Source: an uncultured Planctomycetia bacterium (lineage in GTDB: Bacteria > Planctomycetota > Phycisphaerae > FEN-1346 > JAACEH01). Taken from it: a DNA stretch of 64,000 nt. The notes under the pieces are model-generated. The model saw nothing but the letters and a program-made list of their open reading frames with translations. It searched no databases and was not told the origin of the DNA. The stretch spans positions 16,974 to 80,973 of the forward strand of contig CAIYVX010000082.1 in assembly GCA_903929765.1 (NCBI GenBank), read 5' to 3'. Position 1 is the first letter of the stretch, and each line of letters begins with the position of its first letter. Of this stretch, positions 31,130 to 63,690 are shown in pieces. Both the position numbers and the translations under genes were made by a program.

Positions 31130-31175
31130 GGGTGCCACACCTTGGCCCCCGGCTGTATGGGGGCAAGGTCTGTGG
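31130..31175 (+). repeat. Degenerate copy of the REP family H palindrome
   Basis: GGTGCCACACCTTGGCCCCCGGCTGTATGGGGGCAAGGTCTGTGG retains the GGTGCCACAC...CAAGGTCTGTGG outer arms and the inner CCCCCGG/GGGGG palindrome of family H. Confidence 0.4.
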
Positions 31176-34208: not shown

Positions 34209-35633
34209 TTATTGTTTCTTCTCTCCGGGTGCCACACTTTGAAGCCCCGGCTTTGCCGGGGCCAAAGTGTGTGCTTTGTCGCGCTCCTCGCTCTCCTCGA
34301 CAACCACCTTCGGCTCCGGGAACAACCACATCACCAGCCGCCCGTGATTCGACACGGCCGCAGCGGGCAATTCTACCGCCGAATTTCCGTCGAACCACCC
34401 GAACAGCACGCCCACGCCCTGCCGCACATATTGCTGCGCGACCCAGCGCATGGCCCGCCGCCTAAACGCATCCGCCGGCGCTTCCGCCGAAAACGCCGCC
34501 GCGTCGATCGAAACCGCCTCGCTCGTCGGCCGGTACACTTCGTCAACCAGCCCCATCCGCCACGCCCGGCCCGCCAGATAGCACCACGCATCCTCCAGCC
34601 GCGCCCCATCACCTAAACGCACTCCGGGCACACCCGATTGCACCCAAAACATTTTACCACCACTCGAAGGGTAGGTGCTTATATCCCACTCGCCAGCCTC
34701 AAAGGCCAGAATCAGACCAGGGGTAGCAGGAATGTTCTCCACCGACCATTCTCCGCCCTCGTGGCGATGAAGTATCACCCCTTCGTACATCACCCGGTCC
34801 GCCTCGGCCGCCACCAGCGGGCGCGGCTGCAACCGTGCCTTAAAGTACAGCGTCGCTGGACCTGCTCGGAGAGCCGTCACCGCCGCCAGATCTTCCACCA
34901 GGGCCTGACCCGTCGAGCCATCACGGGAAACGACCGAAACTGCATCCACCGAATACAGCGGTTTTTCAACCAGGGCCACGGCCCAGACCGCCCCACCCAA
35001 AGCCACAACAACCATCGCCGCGATCTTAATCCTATGCGAAAAAAGTTCTGCCACCAACGCCAGGCAAACCAGCACCGCCGTCACCGCCAGCGCCGGAATC
35101 AGAAAATGCCAAACGTCAGCCAACTGCCACGACCGCCCCTGAAACAACATCGTTGGAATCTGTCCTTTATTCTGATCCACATATCCAATCAAATCCGGCC
35201 GCACATGCGTCCGCGCCGCCAGACGGTCGAGCAAACTACCTGACGAAGCCGCACCCTGCCCTCCCAAGCTCGGCCTCAGTTTCGCAGGAGCATAGCTAAC
35301 CAACAACTTCCCTGCGGCGTCCAGCCCCTCGATGGCCGAAAGGTTCAGCGACCCGTCGAAATACCACGGCTCAAACGTCACGTCGCCCGTTTGCCGCGCC
35401 GGAATCAGCACGTCCAGCCGGTACTCGAAAAGTTGATTGGTTTTAATCCGCACCTGCCGGATGTCGGCCGCCGAAGTGTTCGCCAGTTGCAGCGCCACCG
35501 GCAGCTTCATCCCCGAAATTCCCACATCCGAGCCGGCGAAACGAACGTTCGCCCCCGTCTCAGCCCGCGCCTCCACACCCAACGCCGCCGAAAACATGAA
35601 AACCAACAGAACGACGAGCGGCAACTTTTTCAT
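34209..35633 (-). CDS. Hypothetical membrane/secreted protein
   Basis: The ORF has a signal peptide (MKKLPLVVLLVFMFSAALG) and two internal hydrophobic helices. I recognise no family. Confidence 0.5.
   Translation of the reverse strand: MKKLPLVVLLVFMFSAALGVEARAETGANVRFAGSDVGISGMKLPVALQLANTSAADIRQVRIKTNQLFEYRLDVLIPARQTGDVTFEPWYFDGSLNLSAIEGLDAAGKLLVSYAPAKLRPSLGGQGAASSGSLLDRLAARTHVRPDLIGYVDQNKGQIPTMLFQGRSWQLADVWHFLIPALAVTAVLVCLALVAELFSHRIKIAAMVVVALGGAVWAVALVEKPLYSVDAVSVVSRDGSTGQALVEDLAAVTALRAGPATLYFKARLQPRPLVAAEADRVMYEGVILHRHEGGEWSVENIPATPGLILAFEAGEWDISTYPSSGGKMFWVQSGVPGVRLGDGARLEDAWCYLAGRAWRMGLVDEVYRPTSEAVSIDAAAFSAEAPADAFRRRAMRWVAQQYVRQGVGVLFGWFDGNSAVELPAAAVSNHGRLVMWLFPEPKVVVEESEERDKAHTLAPAKPGLQSVAPGEKKQ
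34227..34273 (+). repeat. REP family H, copy 1
   Basis: GGGTGCCACACTTTGAAGCCCCGGCTTTGCCGGGGCCAAAGTGTGTG is a nested palindrome. It is near-identical to 63566-63611 and related to the repeats flanking RAYT-1. Confidence 0.7.
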
Positions 35634-35637
35634 GTCA

Positions 35638-37605
35638 TCACAAATCATAAGCCCGCTTCACCCTCAGTATTTCCGCCACGCTCCAGGCCTGAGCGAAACA
35701 GCCGCGCGGCCAGTGCGGCTCGTCCCCATCAAATATCTCCGCCACCGTGCCCAGCGTCCCCTGGTCCAACGTCGCCAGGGCATTGTCGATCACGCCCTGA
35801 GCCTCGCCGTGGGCCACAAACTCCGACTCCGCCGACGCCATCAGGGCATCGACATACGGCCCCAGCAGCCACGGCCAGACCGTCCCCTGGTGATACGCGA
35901 AATCCCGCTCGAACCAATTCCCGATGCACCGGCCCCGGTAATCCCGATCCTCGCGCGCGAGCGTCCGCAGGCCGCACGGCGTCAAAAGTTTCCGCCGCAC
36001 CGTCCCCACCACCGCCCGCGCCCGCTCGCCCGTCACCGGGGCAAAGGGCAGCGACACCGCGAAAAGCTGATTCGGCCGCACCCGGACATCCCGGTTCTTA
36101 CCGTCCACGCAGTCATAAAGGTAGCCGCCCTCAGCGTTCCAGAACGTCTCGCCGAAGGCCGCCGTCGTCCGAGCCCGCCCGCGCACCGCCTCGGGCAATT
36201 TCGCTTTCGTCGCCCACTTTTCGCCCCAGTCCGCCACGATCCCCAGCGCCGACAGCCACAGGGCGTTGATCTCCACCGCCTTGCCGCGCCGCTGCGTAAA
36301 GGGAACGCCCCCGTGCATCGCGTCCATCCAGGTCAGGGCGTGGCCGTCCTCGCCCGCCCAGATCAGCCCGTCGGTGTCCGCATGAATGTGGTGCCGCGTC
36401 CCCGAGTGGTAGCGCCGCACAATTTCCAGAATCGGCTTCCACAGCTTGTCGTGGACGAAGTCCAGGTCGCCCGTCGCCTGCCCATAGGCCCGCGCCGCCT
36501 GGATGAACCAGAGCGACGAATCCACAGAGTTATATGACAACTTCTTGTTGTCGTCCTCGAAGCGGTTCGGCATCATCCCTTCGTCAATGAGGCCGGCGAA
36601 AAGTTCCAGCACCGCCCGGGCCAGGTCGTGCCGCCCCGTCGCCAGGCACAGCCCCGGCAGCGCAACCATCGCGTCGCGGCCCCAGTCCGCGAACCACGGA
36701 TAACCCGCCAGAATGCTCGCCAGAGTCCGCTCCCGGCTCGGCCGTTCCACCAGGAACTGATCCGCCGCGATCACCAGCATCTCTTCACGCTGCCCGCGCG
36801 GCCCCGCCAGCCGTACCAGTTCCCGCCGCCGCGCCAGTTCTCCCTGACACGCCGCCGCGAACGTCAGCGCCGGTTCATCCGCCCCCAGACTCGCCGTCAG
36901 CACCACTTCCTGCCGCGCGTCCAGATCGACCGTCGCCGACCCGACGCGCAACAAATCTTCCACGTCGTCCTGCCCGCGCTCCGTCTCCACGCGATAGCAA
37001 ATCCCCTTGTACCAGATCGGCTCAACCATGATCTCCGCCCCGCCCGCACGAATGAAGAGATCCTGTCCCCCGACACCCGACACCCGCCAGCCCGCGTCCG
37101 CCGGCTCAACATTCAGCCCGTCGCGCCGCCCTTTCAACTCATGAAAACTCCGCATCGCCACAAACGGCGCGAGCACCAGCTTGGCCCCCGCCGGCGCCCC
37201 GGTCACCTGGTACTGAATCATCACGCAATTGGTCCGGTACACCATCAGGACGCGCTTCGTCACCACCGTTTCGCCGACCTGCCAGCGCCAGACCGGCAGC
37301 GGATCGAGCCGGAAGTCGAGCAGCCGCCGATTGCCATCCGGAAAAAATCCGTCGCGATATTCCGTTGTGTTGAGGTAATGTTCGCCCGACGGCAGGACCA
37401 GCATTTCGTCCAGGTGCGACAGCAGGACGTAACGATCCAGCGGCGGATTCAGCGCCGCCACCAAGAGGCCGTGGTACCGCCGCGTGTTGCACCCCACCAG
37501 GCTCGACGAGCAATACCCGCCCAGCCCGTTGGTCAGCAGAAACCCGCGCCGCAACGACCACTCCAAATCCTGAAGATTATCCGCCCCGGCCACAAACGTC
37601 CACAT
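35638..37605 (-). CDS. Glycogen debranching enzyme (archaeal-type GDE; amylo-alpha-1,6-glucosidase family)
   Basis: The 655-aa product combines an N-terminal GDE_N region with a C-terminal (alpha/alpha)6 catalytic domain whose motifs include GYPWFADWGRDAMVALPGL and WMDAMHGG. Confidence 0.8.
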   Translation of the reverse strand: MWTFVAGADNLQDLEWSLRRGFLLTNGLGGYCSSSLVGCNTRRYHGLLVAALNPPLDRYVLLSHLDEMLVLPSGEHYLNTTEYRDGFFPDGNRRLLDFRLDPLPVWRWQVGETVVTKRVLMVYRTNCVMIQYQVTGAPAGAKLVLAPFVAMRSFHELKGRRDGLNVEPADAGWRVSGVGGQDLFIRAGGAEIMVEPIWYKGICYRVETERGQDDVEDLLRVGSATVDLDARQEVVLTASLGADEPALTFAAACQGELARRRELVRLAGPRGQREEMLVIAADQFLVERPSRERTLASILAGYPWFADWGRDAMVALPGLCLATGRHDLARAVLELFAGLIDEGMMPNRFEDDNKKLSYNSVDSSLWFIQAARAYGQATGDLDFVHDKLWKPILEIVRRYHSGTRHHIHADTDGLIWAGEDGHALTWMDAMHGGVPFTQRRGKAVEINALWLSALGIVADWGEKWATKAKLPEAVRGRARTTAAFGETFWNAEGGYLYDCVDGKNRDVRVRPNQLFAVSLPFAPVTGERARAVVGTVRRKLLTPCGLRTLAREDRDYRGRCIGNWFERDFAYHQGTVWPWLLGPYVDALMASAESEFVAHGEAQGVIDNALATLDQGTLGTVAEIFDGDEPHWPRGCFAQAWSVAEILRVKRAYDL

Positions 37606-37661
37606 AGTGACCCCCAGTATACGCTACTGTTGGTATGGTGCAATAGAAGATGACAAATACA

Positions 37662-37710
37662 GGGTGCCACACTTTGTCCCGACCGCCTTTTGGTCGGGCA
37701 AAGTGTGTGG
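37662..37710 (+). repeat. REP family H, copy 2 (RAYT-1 flank)
   Basis: GGGTGCCACACTTTGTCCCGACCGCCTTTTGGTCGGGCAAAGTGTGTGG lies 18 nt downstream of the RAYT-1 stop. Confidence 0.75.
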
Positions 37711-37727
37711 TTGGTCTGCCGGAAACC

Positions 37728-38264
37728 TCAGACCGGAAGAATATCCATCTCTAAACCTTCATGTCGTTCGTACCACGCGGCACTACTCCAGCGCCAGTCC
37801 GCGACCGACTCGACCAGGCCTCGCCGCACCGGATTATTGTGAATGTAATTGAGCTTCTCATAGAGTTCTTCCCGGCTTGTGATATTCCTATCATAACCAC
37901 CTCCTCCCAGCCAGAAGTGCGGCCTTCCCTGAGCGTCGGTGATCCGAGAGAGAATGGGGGCGTTCAACTCGCGCCACCGAGCGAGAACATCTTTCGAGAA
38001 CGGGCGCTTCAGGGCGTGAAGAATAGCCGTGACGGTAAAGTCAGGGAGGTCAGGTGTCAGAAGCAGGTGGAAATGCTCCGGCATAACGACCCAGGCGTAG
38101 AGGGCAAAGTCCGTCTGCCGCCGGACAAAAGACAACCGGTCTACGAAGGCGTCCTTGACGCGATCACTCTTGAACAGCGGCAACCGGCCGTAGCAGGAAC
38201 AAGTCAGGTAGCGAACATGGTTTGGCAACTCGTAGCGTTTAAGAGTTCGACGATTGTCGCTCAT
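37728..38264 (-). CDS. REP-associated tyrosine transposase (RAYT; IS200/Y1-transposase-like HUH enzyme)
   Basis: MSDNRRTLKRYELPNHVRYLTCSCYGRLPLF...LYAWVVMPEHFHLLLTP (HuH motif)...HFWLGGGGYDRNITSREELYEKLNYIHNNPVRRGLVESVADWRWSS (Tyr motif). It is collinear with E. coli RayT/YafM as I recall it. The start is the internal ATG; the upstream part of the track ORF is just the REP translated. Confidence 0.8.
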   Translation of the reverse strand: MSDNRRTLKRYELPNHVRYLTCSCYGRLPLFKSDRVKDAFVDRLSFVRRQTDFALYAWVVMPEHFHLLLTPDLPDFTVTAILHALKRPFSKDVLARWRELNAPILSRITDAQGRPHFWLGGGGYDRNITSREELYEKLNYIHNNPVRRGLVESVADWRWSSAAWYERHEGLEMDILPV

Positions 38265-38324
38265 GACGGGGCATCTCGACCAATCGGCACGAAGTTTATT
38301 CGGAAGATTTACTTGCGGTCCGAA

Positions 38325-38371
38325 CACACACTTTGCCCGGCATACTGCCGCCGGGACAAAGTGTGGCACCC
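38325..38371 (-). repeat. REP family H, copy 3 (RAYT-1 flank, inverted)
   Basis: CACACACTTTGCCCGGCATACTGCCGCCGGGACAAAGTGTGGCACCC is the reverse complement of the copy-2 pattern. The two copies form inverted REPs around RAYT-1. Confidence 0.75.
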
Positions 38372-38403
38372 TCGTTCCAAGGATCCCAAACAATCAGCTG
38401 AAA

Positions 38404-39579
38404 CTACCTCTTCAGCCGCTGCCGGATGTTGTCCAGGACGTTCATGTAGTTGATGTAGGAATCGTACGGTGAATCGTACGGATTGAAGTACTTATGAACG
38501 TCCCCGTCCGCGAACCACTTCGTGCACATGTAATAGAAATGGTCCGACGTCAGCAGCCGCCGCCAGTCGTGCAGCAGGTTCGGATCAGCCTTGTCCTTGA
38601 TCTGCTTCTCCAGCCGGTAGACTTCGTGCAGGGCGTTGGACTGCATGGCGTTGCCGAGCCACGCCGACAGGTCGCGCTCGATGTCCGCCCACGATATCAT
38701 GTGCGGCACGTCCAGCGTCCCCTCCGGCTCGTAGCGGTCCGTCGCCTCCGAGAGGGTCAGAAAATTATTATCCGGGTGCTGCAGCACGATCTCCGGCAAC
38801 TTCTGCATGAACTGGAAAATCCCCGTGTCTTCCCACTGGTGTTCGCCGAAGGTCTCATAGTCCATAAACAGGTTGACCATGTAGCCGTTGCCGTTGACCT
38901 GGTTGACCCACTGCCCGAACTTCTCCGCCGTCAGCGGCCACTCGTTCCACTGGCGGTTCGAGAAGCGGAAGGCGATGTCGTCGCTCAGGCGATAATTCTT
39001 CAGCAGCAGCTTGATGTTGCGCGTGCCCAGCGGCCGGTACATGAACGTCGGGCTGCGGTAGCCCAGAATGTGGTCCGCCCCCTCGGCCAGGATGCCCTTG
39101 AAGCCCATCTCCTCGATGTAGTGCGCCAGATCATTATTATAAATAAGCTCGGTGTTCCGGAAAACCTGCGGCTTGTAGCCGAACACTTCCTGCATCTTGG
39201 CCGCGTGCGAAACCACCTGCTGCCGGAATTCTTCCCGGCTGTACAGGAAGGCCAGCGAGTGGTAATAGGTCTCGTTCAGAAATTCCACGCAACCGGTGGC
39301 CGCCAGTTGCTTGAAGCTCTCGATCACCTCCGGGCAATAGGCCAGGAACTGATCGACCGCGATCCCGGTGATCGAATAGCTGCACCGGAACCGTCCCTGG
39401 TTGCGGCGGATCAGATCCAGCATCACCTGGTTCGCCGGCAGGTAGCACTTGGTGGCCACCTTCCGACAAATTTCCGCATTCTTGTAGTCATCGAAATAAT
39501 ACGGATCGGTGTCAAAGACGGAATAGCGGCGCAACCGGTACGGCTGATGCACTTGGAAATAAAAACACACTGAGGCCAT
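38404..39579 (-). CDS. Glycoside hydrolase family 57 protein (alpha-glucan-acting; amylase/branching-type)
   Basis: The N-terminus CFYFQVHQPYRL and the 391-aa length fit the GH57 catalytic domain as recalled. It sits in a glycogen-gene context. Confidence 0.7.
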   Translation of the reverse strand: MASVCFYFQVHQPYRLRRYSVFDTDPYYFDDYKNAEICRKVATKCYLPANQVMLDLIRRNQGRFRCSYSITGIAVDQFLAYCPEVIESFKQLAATGCVEFLNETYYHSLAFLYSREEFRQQVVSHAAKMQEVFGYKPQVFRNTELIYNNDLAHYIEEMGFKGILAEGADHILGYRSPTFMYRPLGTRNIKLLLKNYRLSDDIAFRFSNRQWNEWPLTAEKFGQWVNQVNGNGYMVNLFMDYETFGEHQWEDTGIFQFMQKLPEIVLQHPDNNFLTLSEATDRYEPEGTLDVPHMISWADIERDLSAWLGNAMQSNALHEVYRLEKQIKDKADPNLLHDWRRLLTSDHFYYMCTKWFADGDVHKYFNPYDSPYDSYINYMNVLDNIRQRLKR

Positions 39580-39687: not shown

Positions 39688-41073
39688 CTACGCCTGCGTC
39701 ACCGCCCGCTCGTACACCTTCACACACGCATTGGCCGCGTCATGCCACGAGAACTTCCGCACCTCAAAGTGGGCGTGTTTCTTCAGCGTCTCCTGCAACG
39801 GCGCGTGCCGCAGCACCGCGATGATCTTGTTGGCCATCTCGTTGATGTCCCAGAAATCGACCTTCAGCACGTGCGTCAGCACCTCGCTCACCCCGCTCTG
39901 CTTCGAGATGATCACCGGCACGTTCTGGCTCATCGCCTCCAGCGGCACCAGCCCGAACGGTTCGCTCACGCTCGGCATCACGAACAGGTCGGCCATCCGG
40001 AAAATCTTCTGCACGTCATCGCCCCGCAGGAACCCCGTAAAGAGAATCCGGTGCCCGATCCCCAGGTGCGCCGCCAGTTCGATCACCCGCCGGAACATGT
40101 CCCCGTCCCCGGCCATGACGAACTTCACGTTCCCCATTTTTTCCAAAACCTTCTTCGCCGCCGCCACAAAATATTCCGGCCCCTTCTGCATCGTCATCCG
40201 GCCCAGGAAGAGCACCAGCCGCTCGTCCGAATCGAAATCCACCGGGCCTTCCTGCACCGCCTCGGCCGCCGTCTCGTCGATGTCGATCTGGTTGTGCACC
40301 ACCTCCACCTTCTCCGGGTCCGCCCCGTAGCGCGAAATACAGATGTTCCGCGTCAGGTTCGACACGGCGATGACCTTCGTCGCCCCGTGCATCCCCGCCC
40401 GCTCAATGTCGTAGACGACCTGGTTGACGTTGTCCCCCGACCGGTCGAACTCCGTGCTGTGTACGTGGACCACCAGGGGCTTGCCGGTAATTCCTGCCAC
40501 AGCCAGCGCCGCCGGGAAGGTCATCCAGTCGTGGGCGTGAATCACGTCGAACTCGATCCGGTGAGCGAAGGCCATCAGCAGTTTCGTGTAGCGGTGCACC
40601 TCCGACATCAGGTTCCGCCCGTACTGTCCGGTCAACATGGCGCTTTCGGGTCCCGAGGCGGCGGAGCTTTGCTGCTCCCGCCCGATTTCCCGCAGTTCGC
40701 CCTCGGCCGTCATTTCTTCCAGGAACGCCGTACGTTCCTTTTCCGCCCGCTGGGCATAAGTCCCGGCCGTCGCGTACGGCATGAGGTTAACCTGCACCGG
40801 CACGAACGTCACGTTCTCCATATTCTTCAGCCGGTAGCTCAGCAATCCGCCCGGACCCAGGATCGGCACCCACGGCGCTGCATTGCCGTTGGTCTCCGCC
40901 TTTGGCGCGATCAGCCGCACGTGCGTTGCCAGGTCGCTTCGCACCGCCCGCGGCAGCACGAAAAACACTTCCACGCCCAGTTCGCTCATGGCCCGCGTCA
41001 GTCCATAGCAGGCCACCCCCAGGCCCCCACTGATGAACGGCGGAAATTCCCATCCTAACATCAATACACGCAT
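39688..41073 (-). CDS. glgA: Glycogen (alpha-1,4-glucan) synthase, archaeal/GT5-GT4-like glycosyltransferase
   Basis: MRVLMLGWEFPPFISGGLGVA resembles the Pyrococcus-type glycogen synthase N-terminus (GFEFLPVKVGGLAEA). The C-terminus has GT-B motifs (E...E). The product is 461 aa. Confidence 0.75.
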   Translation of the reverse strand: MRVLMLGWEFPPFISGGLGVACYGLTRAMSELGVEVFFVLPRAVRSDLATHVRLIAPKAETNGNAAPWVPILGPGGLLSYRLKNMENVTFVPVQVNLMPYATAGTYAQRAEKERTAFLEEMTAEGELREIGREQQSSAASGPESAMLTGQYGRNLMSEVHRYTKLLMAFAHRIEFDVIHAHDWMTFPAALAVAGITGKPLVVHVHSTEFDRSGDNVNQVVYDIERAGMHGATKVIAVSNLTRNICISRYGADPEKVEVVHNQIDIDETAAEAVQEGPVDFDSDERLVLFLGRMTMQKGPEYFVAAAKKVLEKMGNVKFVMAGDGDMFRRVIELAAHLGIGHRILFTGFLRGDDVQKIFRMADLFVMPSVSEPFGLVPLEAMSQNVPVIISKQSGVSEVLTHVLKVDFWDINEMANKIIAVLRHAPLQETLKKHAHFEVRKFSWHDAANACVKVYERAVTQA

Positions 41074-53647: not shown

Positions 53648-54133
53648 ATGACCAAAACTTCTTTCACCATCCGCCCCGCCACTCCCGCCGACGCCGACGC
53701 CGTCGTCGCCATGTGGCAGATCATGGTGGACCAGCACCAGGCTTACGATCGCCTGCGCTGGCGCATGAAGCCCAACGCCCCCGCCCTTTGGCGCAAGTTC
53801 TTTCTGGAAGTCCTGGCCAAAAAAGATTCCTTCGCCCTGGTCGCCGTCAACGCCACTGGTCAACCCATTGGCTATCTCGTCGCCAACATCGCCGCTCCGC
53901 CGCCGATCGTGGCCATCCGCTCCCGCGGCGATATCGGCGATCTCTTTGTCCGAAAAGAATATCGCCGCCACGGTCTCGGCCGCCGACTAATGAACCACGC
54001 CGTCAAAATCATGAAGAGCCGCGGCGCCGAATATATCAGCCTCTACGTTGCCGCCTCGAACCGCAGCGCCGTCCGTTTCTACAAAAACCTCGGCCTGAAA
54101 CCGCTCGTGCTGCAGATGTGCAATAAGTTATAA
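53648..54133 (+). CDS. GNAT-family N-acetyltransferase
   Basis: The 161-aa product carries the acetyl-CoA-binding motif RRHGLGRRLM and the GNAT beta-strand pattern. Confidence 0.85.
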   Translation: MTKTSFTIRPATPADADAVVAMWQIMVDQHQAYDRLRWRMKPNAPALWRKFFLEVLAKKDSFALVAVNATGQPIGYLVANIAAPPPIVAIRSRGDIGDLFVRKEYRRHGLGRRLMNHAVKIMKSRGAEYISLYVAASNRSAVRFYKNLGLKPLVLQMCNKL

Positions 54134-54139
54134 TGAAAC

Positions 54140-54186
54140 GTGCCACGGCGGGTCTTGTCCCGCCGTGCGAATGCGGGCCGACGCTC
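54140..54186. repeat. Hairpin element family C, copy 1 (immediately upstream of valS)
   Basis: GTGCCACGGCGGGTCTTGTCCCGCCGTGCGAATGCGGGCCGACGC has the stem CACGGCGGG/CCCGCCGTG. Its partner copy is 66 nt downstream of the valS stop. Confidence 0.65.
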
Positions 54187-54207
54187 GCTAAAAGGATAAT
54201 TGTCCCG

Positions 54208-57200
54208 ATGACCCAACCCGAAACCAACTCCACCAACCCCACCGACCTTCCCACCCAATACGACCCCAAGCTCTTCGAAAAGGAAGTTTACGCCTTCTGG
54301 GAATCTCATAACTATTTCCACGCCGACCCCGCGCGCGGCGGAAAACCCTACGCCATAGCCATCCCGCCCCCCAACGTCACTGCCGCCCTCCACCTCGGCC
54401 ACGCCCTCAACAACACCCTTCAGGACATCCTCGTCCGCTGGCGCCGCCAGCAGGGCTACAACACCCTCTGGATGCCCGGCACCGACCACGCCGGCATCGC
54501 CACCCAGGCCGTCATCGAAAAACGTCTCCTCGCCAACGAAGGCCTGCGCCGCAAAGACCTCGACCCCGACCCCGCCGTCGCCCGCACCAAGTTCGTCGCC
54601 CGCGTTCAGGCCTGGAAAGACGAGTACGAAGCCCGCATCCTCGGCCAGCTCAAAGCCATGGGCTGCTCCTGCGACTGGGACCGCACCCGCTTCACCATGG
54701 ACGAAACCTGCGCCGCCGCCGTCCGCGAAGCCTTTTTCCGCCTCTTCAAAGACGGCCTCATCTATCGCGGCAAACGCCTCGTCAACTGGGACCCCGCCAC
54801 CCAGACCGTCCTCGCCGACGACGAAGTCGAACACGAAACCGTCCAGGGAAATTTCTATTACCTCCGCTACCCGCTGGCTGAAGCCGTTGCTTTACCCAGT
54901 GACACGGGCATCTTGCCCGTGAGTCCCACGGGCGTCCCGCCCGTGGCCGCCGTTTCTTCTTCACCCAGTGGCACGGGCGTCCCGCCCGTGAGTGCCACGG
55001 GCATCTTGCCCGTGGAAGACTTGCCTGTAATCAAGCGTCAGGGTGCCAACCTGCCTCACTGGACTCAATCCGGCGCAACCTATGCCATCACGTTCCGGTT
55101 GGCCGATTCTCTCCCCGCCCAAGTCATTGAATCATGGAAGCATCACCGGGAAGAAATCGAACAAAGAGCCAACTCCCAAGGCCGCAAGATGACCTGGCAG
55201 GAGCGTAAGGAACTCCACCAACTGTACGAATCCCGCATCGACAGCATGCTGAACACCGGTCTTGGGGCGTGTTATCTCAACAATCCGGAAGTAGCCGAAA
55301 TCGTCCAGGACGCACTGAAACATTTCCACGGCGAGCGATACGAACTGATCGCCTGGTCACTCATGCCCAACCACATCCATGCCGTTCTCCGTCCTCTGGG
55401 AGAACACCATCTCGCGGACATCATCCACTCCTGGAAGTCCTTCACGGCTAAGCAAGCCAACAAAATTCTTGGACGAGAAGGACAGTTCTGGATGGAGGAA
55501 TACTACGACCACCTGATTCGCGACGAAGAGGATTTTGGCCATGCGGTAATGTACGCGATCAGCCATCCGGAGCGCGCCGGCCTGGCCGACTGGCCGTGGG
55601 TCGGACTGCAAAAAACGGCACAGGGGCAAGATGCCCCTGCGACTCACGGGCAAGATGCCCGTGCCACTGTTATAACACACATCACCGTCGCCACCACCCG
55701 ACCCGAAACCATGCTCGGCGACACCGCCGTCGCCATGAACCCCCGCGACCCCCGCGCCGCCGCTCTCGTCGGCCAGATGGTTCGCCTCCCCATCGTCGGC
55801 CGCCTCATCCCCATCATCGCCGACGAACACGTCGTCCTCCCCAACCCCGAAGGCGACGAAAAAGCCCGCTTCTCCACCGGCTTCCTCAAAGTCACACCCG
55901 CCCACGACCCCAACGACTGGGACATCGGCCAGCGCCACAAACTCCCGGCCATCAACGTCATGGCCCCCGACGGCTCAATCTCCGACAAGCACGGCTGGAC
56001 CGACTGGGACGCCGTCAAAAATCCTGATGTCGAAAAATTCATTGGCCTCGACCGCTTCATAGCCCGAAAGAAGATCGTCGACTGGTTCGGCGAAAACAAT
56101 CTTCTCGAAGAAGTCCGCCCCTACGCCCACGAAGTCGGCCACTCCTACCGCAGCCATGTCCCCATCGAACCCTACCTCTCCGACCAGTGGTTCATCGCCG
56201 TGAAAAAGCCGTTTCTTCTTCACCCCTCTCCCTCGGGAGAGGGTGGCCCTTCAGGGCCGGGTGAGGGGTTGAGGCCCTTGCCCGTTCCGACCGCGCCCGA
56301 ACTGATCCCCGGCACCGACGTGCCAGTTAATTCTTTAGCCGGCTTGGCCATCAAGCCGCTCCTCGACGGCAAACTCAAATTCGTCCCCGAGCGCTACGCC
56401 CGCAACTACCAGAACTGGCTCGAAAACCTTCGCGACTGGCCCATCTCCCGCCAACTCTGGTGGGGACACCGAATTCCAGTGTGGCAAGGAATCACTGAAT
56501 TTGGATCGAAGGTGTTTGAGGGCAAGGACACAGCAAAATCTCCATTCGGAATAGCCGGCGTAGAAGGAATACACATACAGCACAGAGATGAGGCTGGAAA
56601 ACTGGGACTGTATGCCTCGGTACCGCCCGGCCATCCAGACAAGGAAAAGAAACTGGAGGAGGCTGGCCTAACCCGCGACCCCGACGTCCTCGACACCTGG
56701 TTCTCTTCCGGCCTCTGGCCCATCTCAACCCTCGGTTGGCCGGAACAAACCGACGCGCTGAAATTCTATTACCCCACCTCCGTCCTCTGCACCGCCCGCG
56801 AAATCATCACCCTCTGGGTCAGCCGCATGGTCATGTTCGGCGAATATTTCCAGCACGACCTCCCCTTCCGCACCGTCTACATCCACGCCATGATTCAGGA
56901 CGGCGAAGGCCGCAAAATGTCCAAGAGCCTCGGCAACGGCATCGACCCCCTCGACATCATCGACTCTCACGGGGCCGACGCCATGCGCTTCACCATCGCC
57001 GCCATGACCACCGAAACTCAGGACGTCCGCATGCCGGTCGAAACCCTCACCCTCCGCGACGGCCGCACCGCCAACTCCAGCCCCAAGTTCGACCTCGGCC
57101 GCAACTTCTGCAACAAGCTCTGGAACGCCTCCCGCTTCGCCTTCATGAACCTCGCCGAACTTTCCCCCGAGCCGTTCGACCGCGCAAAAATGCTCCTCGA

Positions 57201-58053
57201 AGACCGCTGGATTCTCTCCCGCCTCACCACCACCGTCGAAGCCGCCACACAGGCCCTCGAAAAGTTCCAGTTCCACGACGCCACCGACGTGATCTACTCT
57301 TTCTTCTGGAACGATTTCTGCGACTGGTACCTCGAAATCACCAAGCCGCGCATGCGCGACGCCGCCACCAGAGCCGTCCCCCAACGCATCCTCGCCTACG
57401 CCCTCGACCGTCTCCTGCGGCTCCTCCACCCCTTCGTCCCGCACATTACCGAGCACCTCTGGACCCACTTCGCCCGCCTCGTCCCCGACCGCTCGCTCGA
57501 CTCTGCGGCCCCCGCCCCACCCGCCGAAGCCTGCATCATCGCCCTTTGGCCCGAGCCGGTCGCCGCTTTTTACGCGCCCCAGGCCGAAACCGATTTCGCC
57601 CTCGTCCAGGCCGTCATCCGCGCCATCCGCAACATCCGTTCGCGCATGAACATCGCCCCGCGCGTCCCGCTCCGCGCCGTCATCCGCTCGAGCGCCGCCG
57701 CCACCGCCCGCCTCTCCGCCGCCGCCGACACCATCCGCCACCTCGCCGCCCTCGAATCTCTTGAGGCCGACCCTGCCGCCGAAAAGCCCAAAGCCTCCGC
57801 CGCCGAAATCGTCGAAGGCCTGGAAGTCTTCGTCCCCCTCGCCGGCGTCATCGACCTCGCCACCGAGCGCGACCGCCTCGCCAAACTCTCGGCCGAGAAG
57901 GATAAGGCCCTCGACAGCGTCCGCAAAAAACTCTCGAACGAAAACTTCGTCGCCCGCGCCAAGCCCGAAATCGTCGCCAGCGAACGCGACCGCGCCGCCA
58001 AGCTCGAATCCGAACTCGCCGCCCTCACAGCCAACATGAAAGATTTGGAATAG
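54208..58053 (+). CDS. valS: Valyl-tRNA synthetase carrying two in-frame repeat-derived insertions (one is a complete REP-RAYT-REP unit)
   Basis: The HIGH (HLGH), KMSKS, TTRPETMLGD (CP1), WCISRQ-like (WPISRQLWWGHRIP) and anticodon-binding regions are present, as is the C-terminal coiled coil. The ORF is uninterrupted for 1282 codons from the chosen ATG, versus about 880-1000 aa typical. Confidence 0.93.
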   Translation: MTQPETNSTNPTDLPTQYDPKLFEKEVYAFWESHNYFHADPARGGKPYAIAIPPPNVTAALHLGHALNNTLQDILVRWRRQQGYNTLWMPGTDHAGIATQAVIEKRLLANEGLRRKDLDPDPAVARTKFVARVQAWKDEYEARILGQLKAMGCSCDWDRTRFTMDETCAAAVREAFFRLFKDGLIYRGKRLVNWDPATQTVLADDEVEHETVQGNFYYLRYPLAEAVALPSDTGILPVSPTGVPPVAAVSSSPSGTGVPPVSATGILPVEDLPVIKRQGANLPHWTQSGATYAITFRLADSLPAQVIESWKHHREEIEQRANSQGRKMTWQERKELHQLYESRIDSMLNTGLGACYLNNPEVAEIVQDALKHFHGERYELIAWSLMPNHIHAVLRPLGEHHLADIIHSWKSFTAKQANKILGREGQFWMEEYYDHLIRDEEDFGHAVMYAISHPERAGLADWPWVGLQKTAQGQDAPATHGQDARATVITHITVATTRPETMLGDTAVAMNPRDPRAAALVGQMVRLPIVGRLIPIIADEHVVLPNPEGDEKARFSTGFLKVTPAHDPNDWDIGQRHKLPAINVMAPDGSISDKHGWTDWDAVKNPDVEKFIGLDRFIARKKIVDWFGENNLLEEVRPYAHEVGHSYRSHVPIEPYLSDQWFIAVKKPFLLHPSPSGEGGPSGPGEGLRPLPVPTAPELIPGTDVPVNSLAGLAIKPLLDGKLKFVPERYARNYQNWLENLRDWPISRQLWWGHRIPVWQGITEFGSKVFEGKDTAKSPFGIAGVEGIHIQHRDEAGKLGLYASVPPGHPDKEKKLEEAGLTRDPDVLDTWFSSGLWPISTLGWPEQTDALKFYYPTSVLCTAREIITLWVSRMVMFGEYFQHDLPFRTVYIHAMIQDGEGRKMSKSLGNGIDPLDIIDSHGADAMRFTIAAMTTETQDVRMPVETLTLRDGRTANSSPKFDLGRNFCNKLWNASRFAFMNLAELSPEPFDRAKMLLEDRWILSRLTTTVEAATQALEKFQFHDATDVIYSFFWNDFCDWYLEITKPRMRDAATRAVPQRILAYALDRLLRLLHPFVPHITEHLWTHFARLVPDRSLDSAAPAPPAEACIIALWPEPVAAFYAPQAETDFALVQAVIRAIRNIRSRMNIAPRVPLRAVIRSSAAATARLSAAADTIRHLAALESLEADPAAEKPKASAAEIVEGLEVFVPLAGVIDLATERDRLAKLSAEKDKALDSVRKKLSNENFVARAKPEIVASERDRAAKLESELAALTANMKDLE
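54897..55669 (+). mobile_element. REP-RAYT-REP composite embedded in frame in valS
   Basis: Two tandem family-A REP doublets (54897-54946, 54966-55015) are followed by a RAYT-like HUH domain (~55012-55605: LPHWTQSGATYAITFRL...AWSLMPNHIHAVL...FWMEEYYDHLIRDEEDFGHAVMYAISHPERAGLADWPWVG) and one inverted family-A REP (55616-55669). The region has no stop codon and no ATG; it is contiguous with the flanking ValRS sequence. Confidence 0.8.
56208..56272 (+). repeat. Palindromic element family B, copy 4, in frame inside valS
   Basis: CCGTTTCTTCTTCACCCCTCTCCCTCGGGAGAGGGTGGCCCTTCAGGGCCGGGTGAGGGGTTGAGG is translated as PFLLHPSPSGEGGPSGPGEGLR. It sits within a ~40-aa insertion relative to the E. coli ValRS region DQWFV...FVPKQY. 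Confidence 0.75.
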
Positions 58054-58072: not shown

Positions 58073-58112
58073 ACGGGTGGCATGGCGGCCGTCGTTTGCC
58101 GCCATGTTTCGC
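58073..58112. repeat. Palindromic element family D, copy 2
   Basis: GAACGGGTGGCATGGCGGCCGTCGTTTGCCGCCATGTTTCGCC starts 20 nt after the valS stop. Confidence 0.65.
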
Positions 58113-58118
58113 CCCGGG

Positions 58119-58160
58119 TGTGCCACGGCGGGCTTGCCCCGCCGTGCGAATGCCCGCCAA
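58119..58160. repeat. Hairpin element family C, copy 2 (immediately downstream of valS)
   Basis: GTGTGCCACGGCGGGCTTGCCCCGCCGTGCGAATGCCCGCCA matches copy 1 at 54140-54186. Confidence 0.65.
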
Positions 58161-63500: not shown

Positions 63501-63565
63501 GGCAGTTGCTGTTGTTTCTTTCGTAGGGGCAGAGTTCATCTCTGCCCTGCTGTTTCTTTTTTTCC

Positions 63566-63611
63566 GGGTGCCACACTTTGAAGCCCCGGCCCTGCCGGGG
63601 CCAAAGTGTGT
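63566..63611 (+). repeat. REP family H, copy 4
   Basis: GGGTGCCACACTTTGAAGCCCCGGCCCTGCCGGGGCCAAAGTGTGT is near-identical to copy 1 at 34227-34273. Confidence 0.7.
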
Positions 63612-63690
63612 TCTTTGCTTCGCTCTACAATCCCCAATCGCCGCAACCCATCCTACTTCCGCCCGCCTCATTTTCTGCTTCTTTCGCTTT

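Follow-up and report, generated by a model that had tools for sequence, protein, structure and literature searches.

The glycogen gene cluster of this Phycisphaerae (Planctomycetota) genome contains a 798-nt gap between two of its genes, which raises the question of what fills the gap and how it came to be there. On the minus strand of the window, as we call the whole 64-kb stretch of DNA that was analyzed, the gene order is ALAD, a GT5/GT4 glycogen-synthase-like gene (39688..41073), a GH57 gene (38404..39579; PF03065, 3.2e-74), a small gene for a domesticated transposase, the REP-associated tyrosine transposase (RAYT), the glycogen debranching enzyme gene (GDE; 35638..37605, with domain matches to GDE_N and GDE_C), an ORF of 479 aa, and HflX. 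The GH57-GDE spacer is made up of 31 nt after the GH57 stop codon (38373..38403), a 712-nt unit, and 55 nt before the GDE start codon (37606..37660). A preliminary description had proposed that a REP-RAYT-REP unit fills the gap between GH57 and GDE in a same-strand cluster, and annotation of the neighbors agrees. Its placement of the glycogen synthase was right as to strand but not as to position, since this gene lies, in transcriptional terms, upstream and not downstream of the unit. We read the locus as a REPtron, that is, a gene for a single-stranded DNA HUH/Y1 endonuclease placed between one inverted cognate REP on either side, and give this reading a probability of roughly 0.85.

The RAYT Gene and Its Product

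The ORF at 37728..38264 (minus strand) encodes a protein of 178 aa, and profiles, fold, and catalytic residues confirmed it as a RAYT (TnpA_REP). The NCBIfam RAYT model NF047646 scored 100.3 bits (cutoff 80), with a match spanning residues 9-160 and model positions 3-146 of 146. Pfam Y1_Tnp was barely above threshold (25.1 bits, cutoff 23), and the IS200 model NF033573 was below it (17.4 bits, cutoff 55). The preliminary description had staked its claim on a Y1-transposase/RAYT domain in 37728-38264, and both NF047646 and Y1_Tnp found one. The HuH and Tyr motifs that it had reported in a 178-aa protein were likewise reproduced by sequence, translation, and profiles, with PEHFHLLL at residues 62-69 and LYEKLNYIHNNPV at residues 134-146. 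The catalytic set consists of H64 and H66 of the HuH motif, the tyrosine Y140, and N144 as third metal ligand. In the E. coli TnpA_REP, the third metal ligand is also an asparagine (N119), four residues past the catalytic tyrosine (PMC6006769). All four residues were invariant in an alignment of 30 RAYT homologues, as was a GGGYDxN block, and R126 was present in at least 90% of them. The mechanical ORF list also holds a longer, TTG-initiated version (37728-38393) that overlaps the upstream REP; we place the start at ATG 38264 because it matches the N-termini of the aligned homologues (MxxxRRTLKR).

Structural comparison led to the same family. E. coli TnpA_REP (4er8) was the top PDB match by sequence (7.7e-8), and an AlphaFold (AF2) model built from the homologue alignment (pLDDT 92.5) retrieved 4er8_A as its top Foldseek match (E 9.8e-10, TM 0.62/0.66), followed by the TnpA proteins of ISDra2 and IS608. 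A protein-collection search returned 1,777 relatives, of which the named ones belong to Planctomycetota and Phycisphaerae; several are already annotated as REP-associated tyrosine transposases. At least 584 confirmed matches to the clade were found in species-representative genomes. Within the 64-kb window, we found no second copy of the gene.

Flanking Repeats and Their Copies in the Window

Both sides of the gene carry a REP of the family designated H, each in inverted orientation to the other. The downstream REP (37661..37710, plus strand) has its head, GGGTGCC, at 37662-37668 and its hairpin at 37668-37707. The upstream REP (38325..38372, minus strand) has the head AGGGTGCC at 38372-38365, in which GGGTGCC occupies 38371-38365, and a hairpin at 38365-38327. 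In both, the head is followed by the stem CACACTTTG/CAAAGTGTG: on the plus strand the left REP runs A-GGGTGCC-ACACTTTG-TCCCGACC-loop-GGTCGGG-CAAAGTGTG, and the right REP reads alike on the minus strand. The preliminary description had the gene bracketed by inverted family-H REPs 18 nt downstream and 60 nt upstream. A repeat search agrees, with inverted arms 26 nt long (92% complementary) and 25 nt long (84%). The REPs lie 18-20 nt from the stop of the ORF and 60-62 nt from its start, the exact figure varying with the REP end chosen. As single-stranded DNA, the downstream REP folds at -18.3 kcal/mol (z -4.1) and the upstream REP at -18.7 kcal/mol (z -3.7), values matched by none of 200 shuffles for either REP. 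Neither a target-site duplication at the edges of the unit nor a further ORF within it, tnpB included, was seen.

Family H resembles canonical REPs in being a stable imperfect palindrome of 20-40 nt that is mostly extragenic. Its foot, directly 5' of the stem CACACTTTG, is GTGC and not the canonical GT[AG]G (PMC6006769; PMC3733652), of which it is a close variant.

Three further copies are dispersed over the window, all on the plus strand. Those at 34227..34275 (-20.7 kcal/mol, z -5.1) and 63566..63612 (-19.3 kcal/mol, z -4.7) are nearly identical to each other and form intact hairpins with a sister apical stem; the one at 31130..31172 is degenerate, with an intact head and mismatches in the basal stem (z -2.1). 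The motif CACACTTTGYCC occurs six times in the window against 0.52 expected, and GGGTGCCACAC, the head plus the start of the stem, six times against 1.49, counts that no shuffle reached. When the five copies are aligned, they have the head and basal stem GGGTGCCACAC..TTG in common, and the GTGC foot is invariant in all five. The head and 9-bp basal stem of the upstream REP are identical to those of other copies. The apical stems vary with compensating changes (TCCCGACC/GGTCGGGC, TCCCGGC/GCCGGGC, AAGCCCCGGC/GCCGGGGCC). The flanking repeats are thus conserved with the other three copies in head and basal stem, as the preliminary description had required of them. Its label of degenerate copies holds for 31130 only: the hairpins at 34227 and 63566 are perfect, and these two copies are a sister sub-family of family H and not decayed.

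Of the five copies, four are intergenic and the fifth, at 34227, overlaps the last 20 codons of the 479-aa ORF (34209-35648, minus strand), for which no Pfam hit was obtained. The REP at 34227-34275 is there translated as roughly the last 20 residues of the protein, which ends in ...RDKAHTLAPAKPGLQSVAPGEKKQ before the stop. All three dispersed copies in the 64 kb are singlets, not inverted doublets. A further candidate, GGGTGCAACAC at 37484, was rejected as a chance match, as it lies inside the GDE coding sequence with one mismatch and no hairpin. Two metagenome contigs of 841 and 819 nt that carry the identical RAYT (L003 and L004) begin within the upstream REP; this suggests that assemblies break there and thereby hints, indirectly, that family H is multi-copy in the genome.

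A Constant Head Across the RAYT Clade

We fetched 80 loci of RAYT relatives from species-representative genomes. Nearly all came from Phycisphaerae, the exceptions being other Planctomycetota (Isosphaeraceae, Pirellulaceae, and Planctomycetales), and the best relative was 64% identical. Most of these loci carry an inverted repeat that starts with GGGTGCC on both flanks of the gene. Counting GGGTGCC wherever a perfect stem of 7 bp or longer comes after it, we found 127 occurrences in the 46 kb within 300 nt of a RAYT and 34 in the other 683 kb, a density of 2.75/kb vs. 0.05/kb, or about 55-fold. Such hairpins lay on both sides of the gene in 34 of the 80 loci and on at least one side in 48, and in the commonest orientation both heads point outward, which is also the case in the window.

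The stems behind this head were diverse. Across the 80 loci, 47 distinct stem openings (the first up to 8 nt) follow the one GGGTGCC, and in genomes with multiple RAYTs a different stem accompanies each paralogue (e.g., L012, L047, and L056, one MAG). The window's basal stem, CACACTTTG, is retained in L005-L007, whose RAYTs are 58-65% identical. From these comparisons, the head is a clade-wide constant and the stem its lineage-specific partner. An enzyme that reads the foot and the shape of the hairpin would be expected to leave such a combination of constant head and diversified stems.

A Site That Is Empty in Relatives

A metagenome scan based on GDE yielded 80 loci, in 40 of which GH57 precedes GDE on the same strand. 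The spacer between the two genes lacks a RAYT in all of these: in 38, which retain the order GT-GH57-GDE, it measures 85-251 nt (median 147), and in the other two a GH15-ferredoxin gene lies between. These two genes (L089 1067-3799 and L091 1389-3767) encode a glucoamylase-like GH15 fused to a C-terminal 4Fe-4S ferredoxin, an odd combination of domains. One locus, L085, retains the whole order ALAD-GT-GH57-GDE-ORF-HflX, with a repeat-free GH57-GDE spacer of about 150-175 nt. Conversely, neither GDE nor GH57 was found near the RAYT in any of the 80 RAYT loci of other genomes.

Because the relatives' spacers are short and RAYT-free, and because RAYT loci elsewhere are without GH57 and GDE, the 712-nt unit is most readily seen as a lineage-specific insertion into an operon-like GH57-GDE spacer, with the proviso that even the nearest relatives whose spacer is informative are only distantly related (80% identity in GH57, 59% in GDE). 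Loss of the unit in other lineages, instead of insertion here, could in principle also have produced the pattern. A search for a closer empty site through GH57 homologues gave none, as in the two nearest of them, at 83% identity, GDE no longer follows GH57. These loci (L165-L168) retain ALAD-GT-GH57 and have unrelated opposite-strand genes in place of GDE, so the 3' side of GH57 is a synteny breakpoint in the clade. In one of them (L168, 6190-6420), the spacer after GH57 carries canonical GTAG-footed REPs.

A Second RAYT Inside valS and Other Repeat Families

A complete second REPtron lies within the valS ORF (54133-58053, plus strand), where it occupies 54898-55670 on the same strand, in frame and with no stop codon. 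Its RAYT segment scored 64.3 bits with the RAYT model and 23.6 with Y1_Tnp and is 28% identical to the RAYT at 37728-38264. The insert is ordered as four family-A REPs, the RAYT (motifs PNHIH and VMYAISHPERAG), and two inverted family-A REPs. A second RAYT with its own REP family means that two RAYT/REP lineages coexist, H in the glycogen cluster and A in valS, and on this point the preliminary description is borne out. The proteins closest to the insert are RAYTs that stand alone, 186-342 aa in length (best 73% identical), and no fusion to ValRS occurs among the best 120 homologues. On the T. thermophilus ValRS structure (1gax), its 268 residues replace a five-residue beta-turn (205-209). The valS RAYT is without a stop codon of its own, whether through loss or from the outset. 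An essential enzyme may tolerate the insert as a surface loop, or the gene may be disrupted. Exact-match searches for the ValRS product, made with two alternative starts, returned no recorded protein. The in-frame element is a more unusual feature of the window than the unit in the glycogen cluster.

Family A is a direct doublet of two hairpins of about 50 nt, GTGGCACGGGC(G/A)TC..GCCCGTGAGTC and then ..GGGGCATCTTGCCCC, with the foot GTGG. Its doublets occupy five intergenic spacers (34150, 39619, 46545, 59631, and 61613, plus strand), among them those between GT and GH57 and after ORF 34209-35648, so that no spacer of the glycogen cluster is without a REP, whichever its family. At least five families are present in the 64 kb, which makes this a REP-rich genome. 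A further REP-like family, GTGCCACGGCGGG(T/C)CTTG..CCCGCCGTGCGAA, occurs in direct orientation on both sides of valS (54140-54172 and 58120-58152), and since its first copy falls within the first codons of the mechanical ORF, valS probably starts at ATG 54208. Other REP-like elements are a hairpin GGGTGGCATGGCGGC... and a GTAG-footed hairpin GTAGGGGCAGAG...CTCTGCCC (58076-58107; 63523-63548).

Elements of the form GTGNCAC plus stem have their head on the plus strand in 13 of 15 cases, regardless of the direction of neighboring genes. The other two, with heads on the minus strand, correspond exactly to the arms distal to the RAYT in the two REPtrons. GC skew stays negative from one end of the window to the other, so this strong strand bias is relative to one replication arm; it fits strand-specific, replication-coupled insertion.

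Alternative Readings

The RAYT ORF is full-length and uninterrupted, with all catalytic residues present, the same protein recurs without a change on contigs of several metagenome samples, and its model is confidently folded. These observations sit poorly with the idea that the RAYT is an inactive relic whose hairpins now serve the host alone, marking transcript ends in the glycogen cluster or attenuating or stabilizing its mRNA. Such an idea draws on the known action of REPs on mRNA stability and termination (PMC6006769; PMC3733652), on the RNA folds, in which both flanking REPs are strong hairpins within inter-cistronic regions, and on the presence of some REP in every spacer of the cluster. 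We consider it very improbable; in addition, there is no U-tract directly after either hairpin, and the hairpins are absent from the GH57-GDE site in relatives.

The end hairpins of IS200/IS605 elements such as IS608 have the same orientation on one strand. Recent transposition of an autonomous insertion sequence of this type into the glycogen cluster, with the hairpins as its left and right ends, would account for a compact 712-nt unit bounded exactly by hairpins, for the empty site in relatives, and for a protein fold and single-strand hairpin recognition in common with the IS608 and ISDra2 systems, but it is very improbable given that the IS200 model falls well below its cutoff, that the Tyr motif is YIHNNP and not the Y...Q of IS200 (Table 1, PMC6006769), that the hairpins of the unit are inverted, that tnpB and a second gene copy are missing from the 64 kb, and that solo hairpins are dispersed without the gene.

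Comparison With Known Systems

Among known systems, the locus is close to the REPtron of E. coli (tnpA_REP/yafM with REP/BIME flanks; structure 4ER8). Both have the HUH-Y1 fold with H-u-H, Y, and N at +4, a gene between inverted cognate REPs, solo REPs of the same family in intergenic DNA, and one REP family per RAYT (PMC6006769). The differences are in host (Planctomycetota here), in sequence (about 21% identity between the two proteins), in the number of repeats (one REP per side here, several REPINs in E. coli), and in the foot, which is GTGC within the 7-nt head GGGTGCC here vs. GTAG in E. coli. The E. coli W94-R104 region corresponds to FW(Q/L)xGGGYDRN, in which D and R stand where E. coli has E100 and H101, and the guide-contacting R104 has no conserved counterpart in the window's RAYT family (PMC6006769). 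Given the GTGC foot and the missing counterpart of R104, details of recognition may differ from those in E. coli.

Among described subclasses, TnpA_Y1 2.4 and 2.6 of Quentin et al. (2018), Bertels groups 4 and 5, are similar in their W and Y motifs: WQ and YIxNNP in 2.4 and WQ and YIH[QN]NP in 2.6, compared with a consensus of FWQ and YIHNNP in the window's family. The length of 178 aa is also near their medians (194 and 179). The HuH context differs, being E-H-[FV]-H here and not N-H-x-H, and the window's REPs are neither the 'double foot' nor the gene-inserted kind of subclass 2.4, nor the atypical weak structures of 2.6. Judged by motifs alone (EH[FV]H, W[QL], YIHNNP), two of three fit 2.4 or 2.6, and no subclass fits on all three. 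The REPIN, a pair of inverted REPs, was reportedly proposed as the mobile unit by Bertels and Rainey in 2011. The unit in the window is laid out in this way, the RAYT gene serving as spacer; the dispersed copies differ from REPINs in being singlets and not inverted doublets.

Proposed Mechanism

Taking E. coli TnpA_REP and IS608 TnpA as models, we infer an active enzyme. The RAYT would bind the REP hairpin in single-stranded DNA and read the conserved foot (GTGC in GGGTGCC, 5' of CACACTTTG) as a guide. Cleavage and rejoining would take place nearby through a phosphotyrosine at Y140, with the metal held by H64, H66, and N144. Copies of the REP could thereby have spread to other intergenic sites, such as 31130, 34227, and 63566.

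REPtrons are held not to transpose as a unit (PMC6006769). Taken at face value, the empty sites would nevertheless show that this one has changed address at least once, the whole 712-nt unit having probably been inserted, in this genome's lineage, into a GH57-GDE spacer that was short before (about 86-250 nt). As to its mode of arrival, its own enzymatic chemistry may have moved it, or REPs may have recombined.

We also infer an effect on transcription. The RAYT gene is on the same strand as the glycogen genes and may thus be read through from the cluster transcript, and the two strong hairpins may attenuate or stabilize the cluster mRNA, as REPs do elsewhere. A scan for sigma-70 promoters and terminators gave counts close to shuffle expectation and nothing decisive in the spacers, and so speaks neither for nor against the co-transcription that the preliminary description thought probable; an Rfam scan of 37000-39000 (E <= 1) returned only a chance-level sRNA match within GDE. 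Read-through expression with some attenuation is plausible. More tentatively, and with considerable doubt, we put forward that the unit moved in one piece into a conserved operon spacer, behaving like a giant REPIN whose spacer is the gene, and that RAYT expression by read-through from the cluster would tie REP mobilization to carbon-storage physiology. A one-piece move, if true, would speak against the prevailing view of REPtrons as immobile.

Significance

The finding is real and ordinary in kind: a further REPtron, in Planctomycetota. It departs from known REPtrons only in the GTGC foot, where GT[AG]G is the rule, and in the evidence for relocation of the whole unit. A non-exhaustive literature check found no earlier description of a RAYT clade centered on Phycisphaerae, and the locus can serve as an exemplar of this large clade, some members of which belong to other Planctomycetota. 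For annotation, it carries the warning that the 798-nt gap in the glycogen cluster is an insertion and not a regulatory region. The empty site in relatives offers a datable instance of a RAYT moving to a new genomic location, and the retention of GGGTGCC while stems diversify provides a natural series for asking which part of the REP the enzyme reads.
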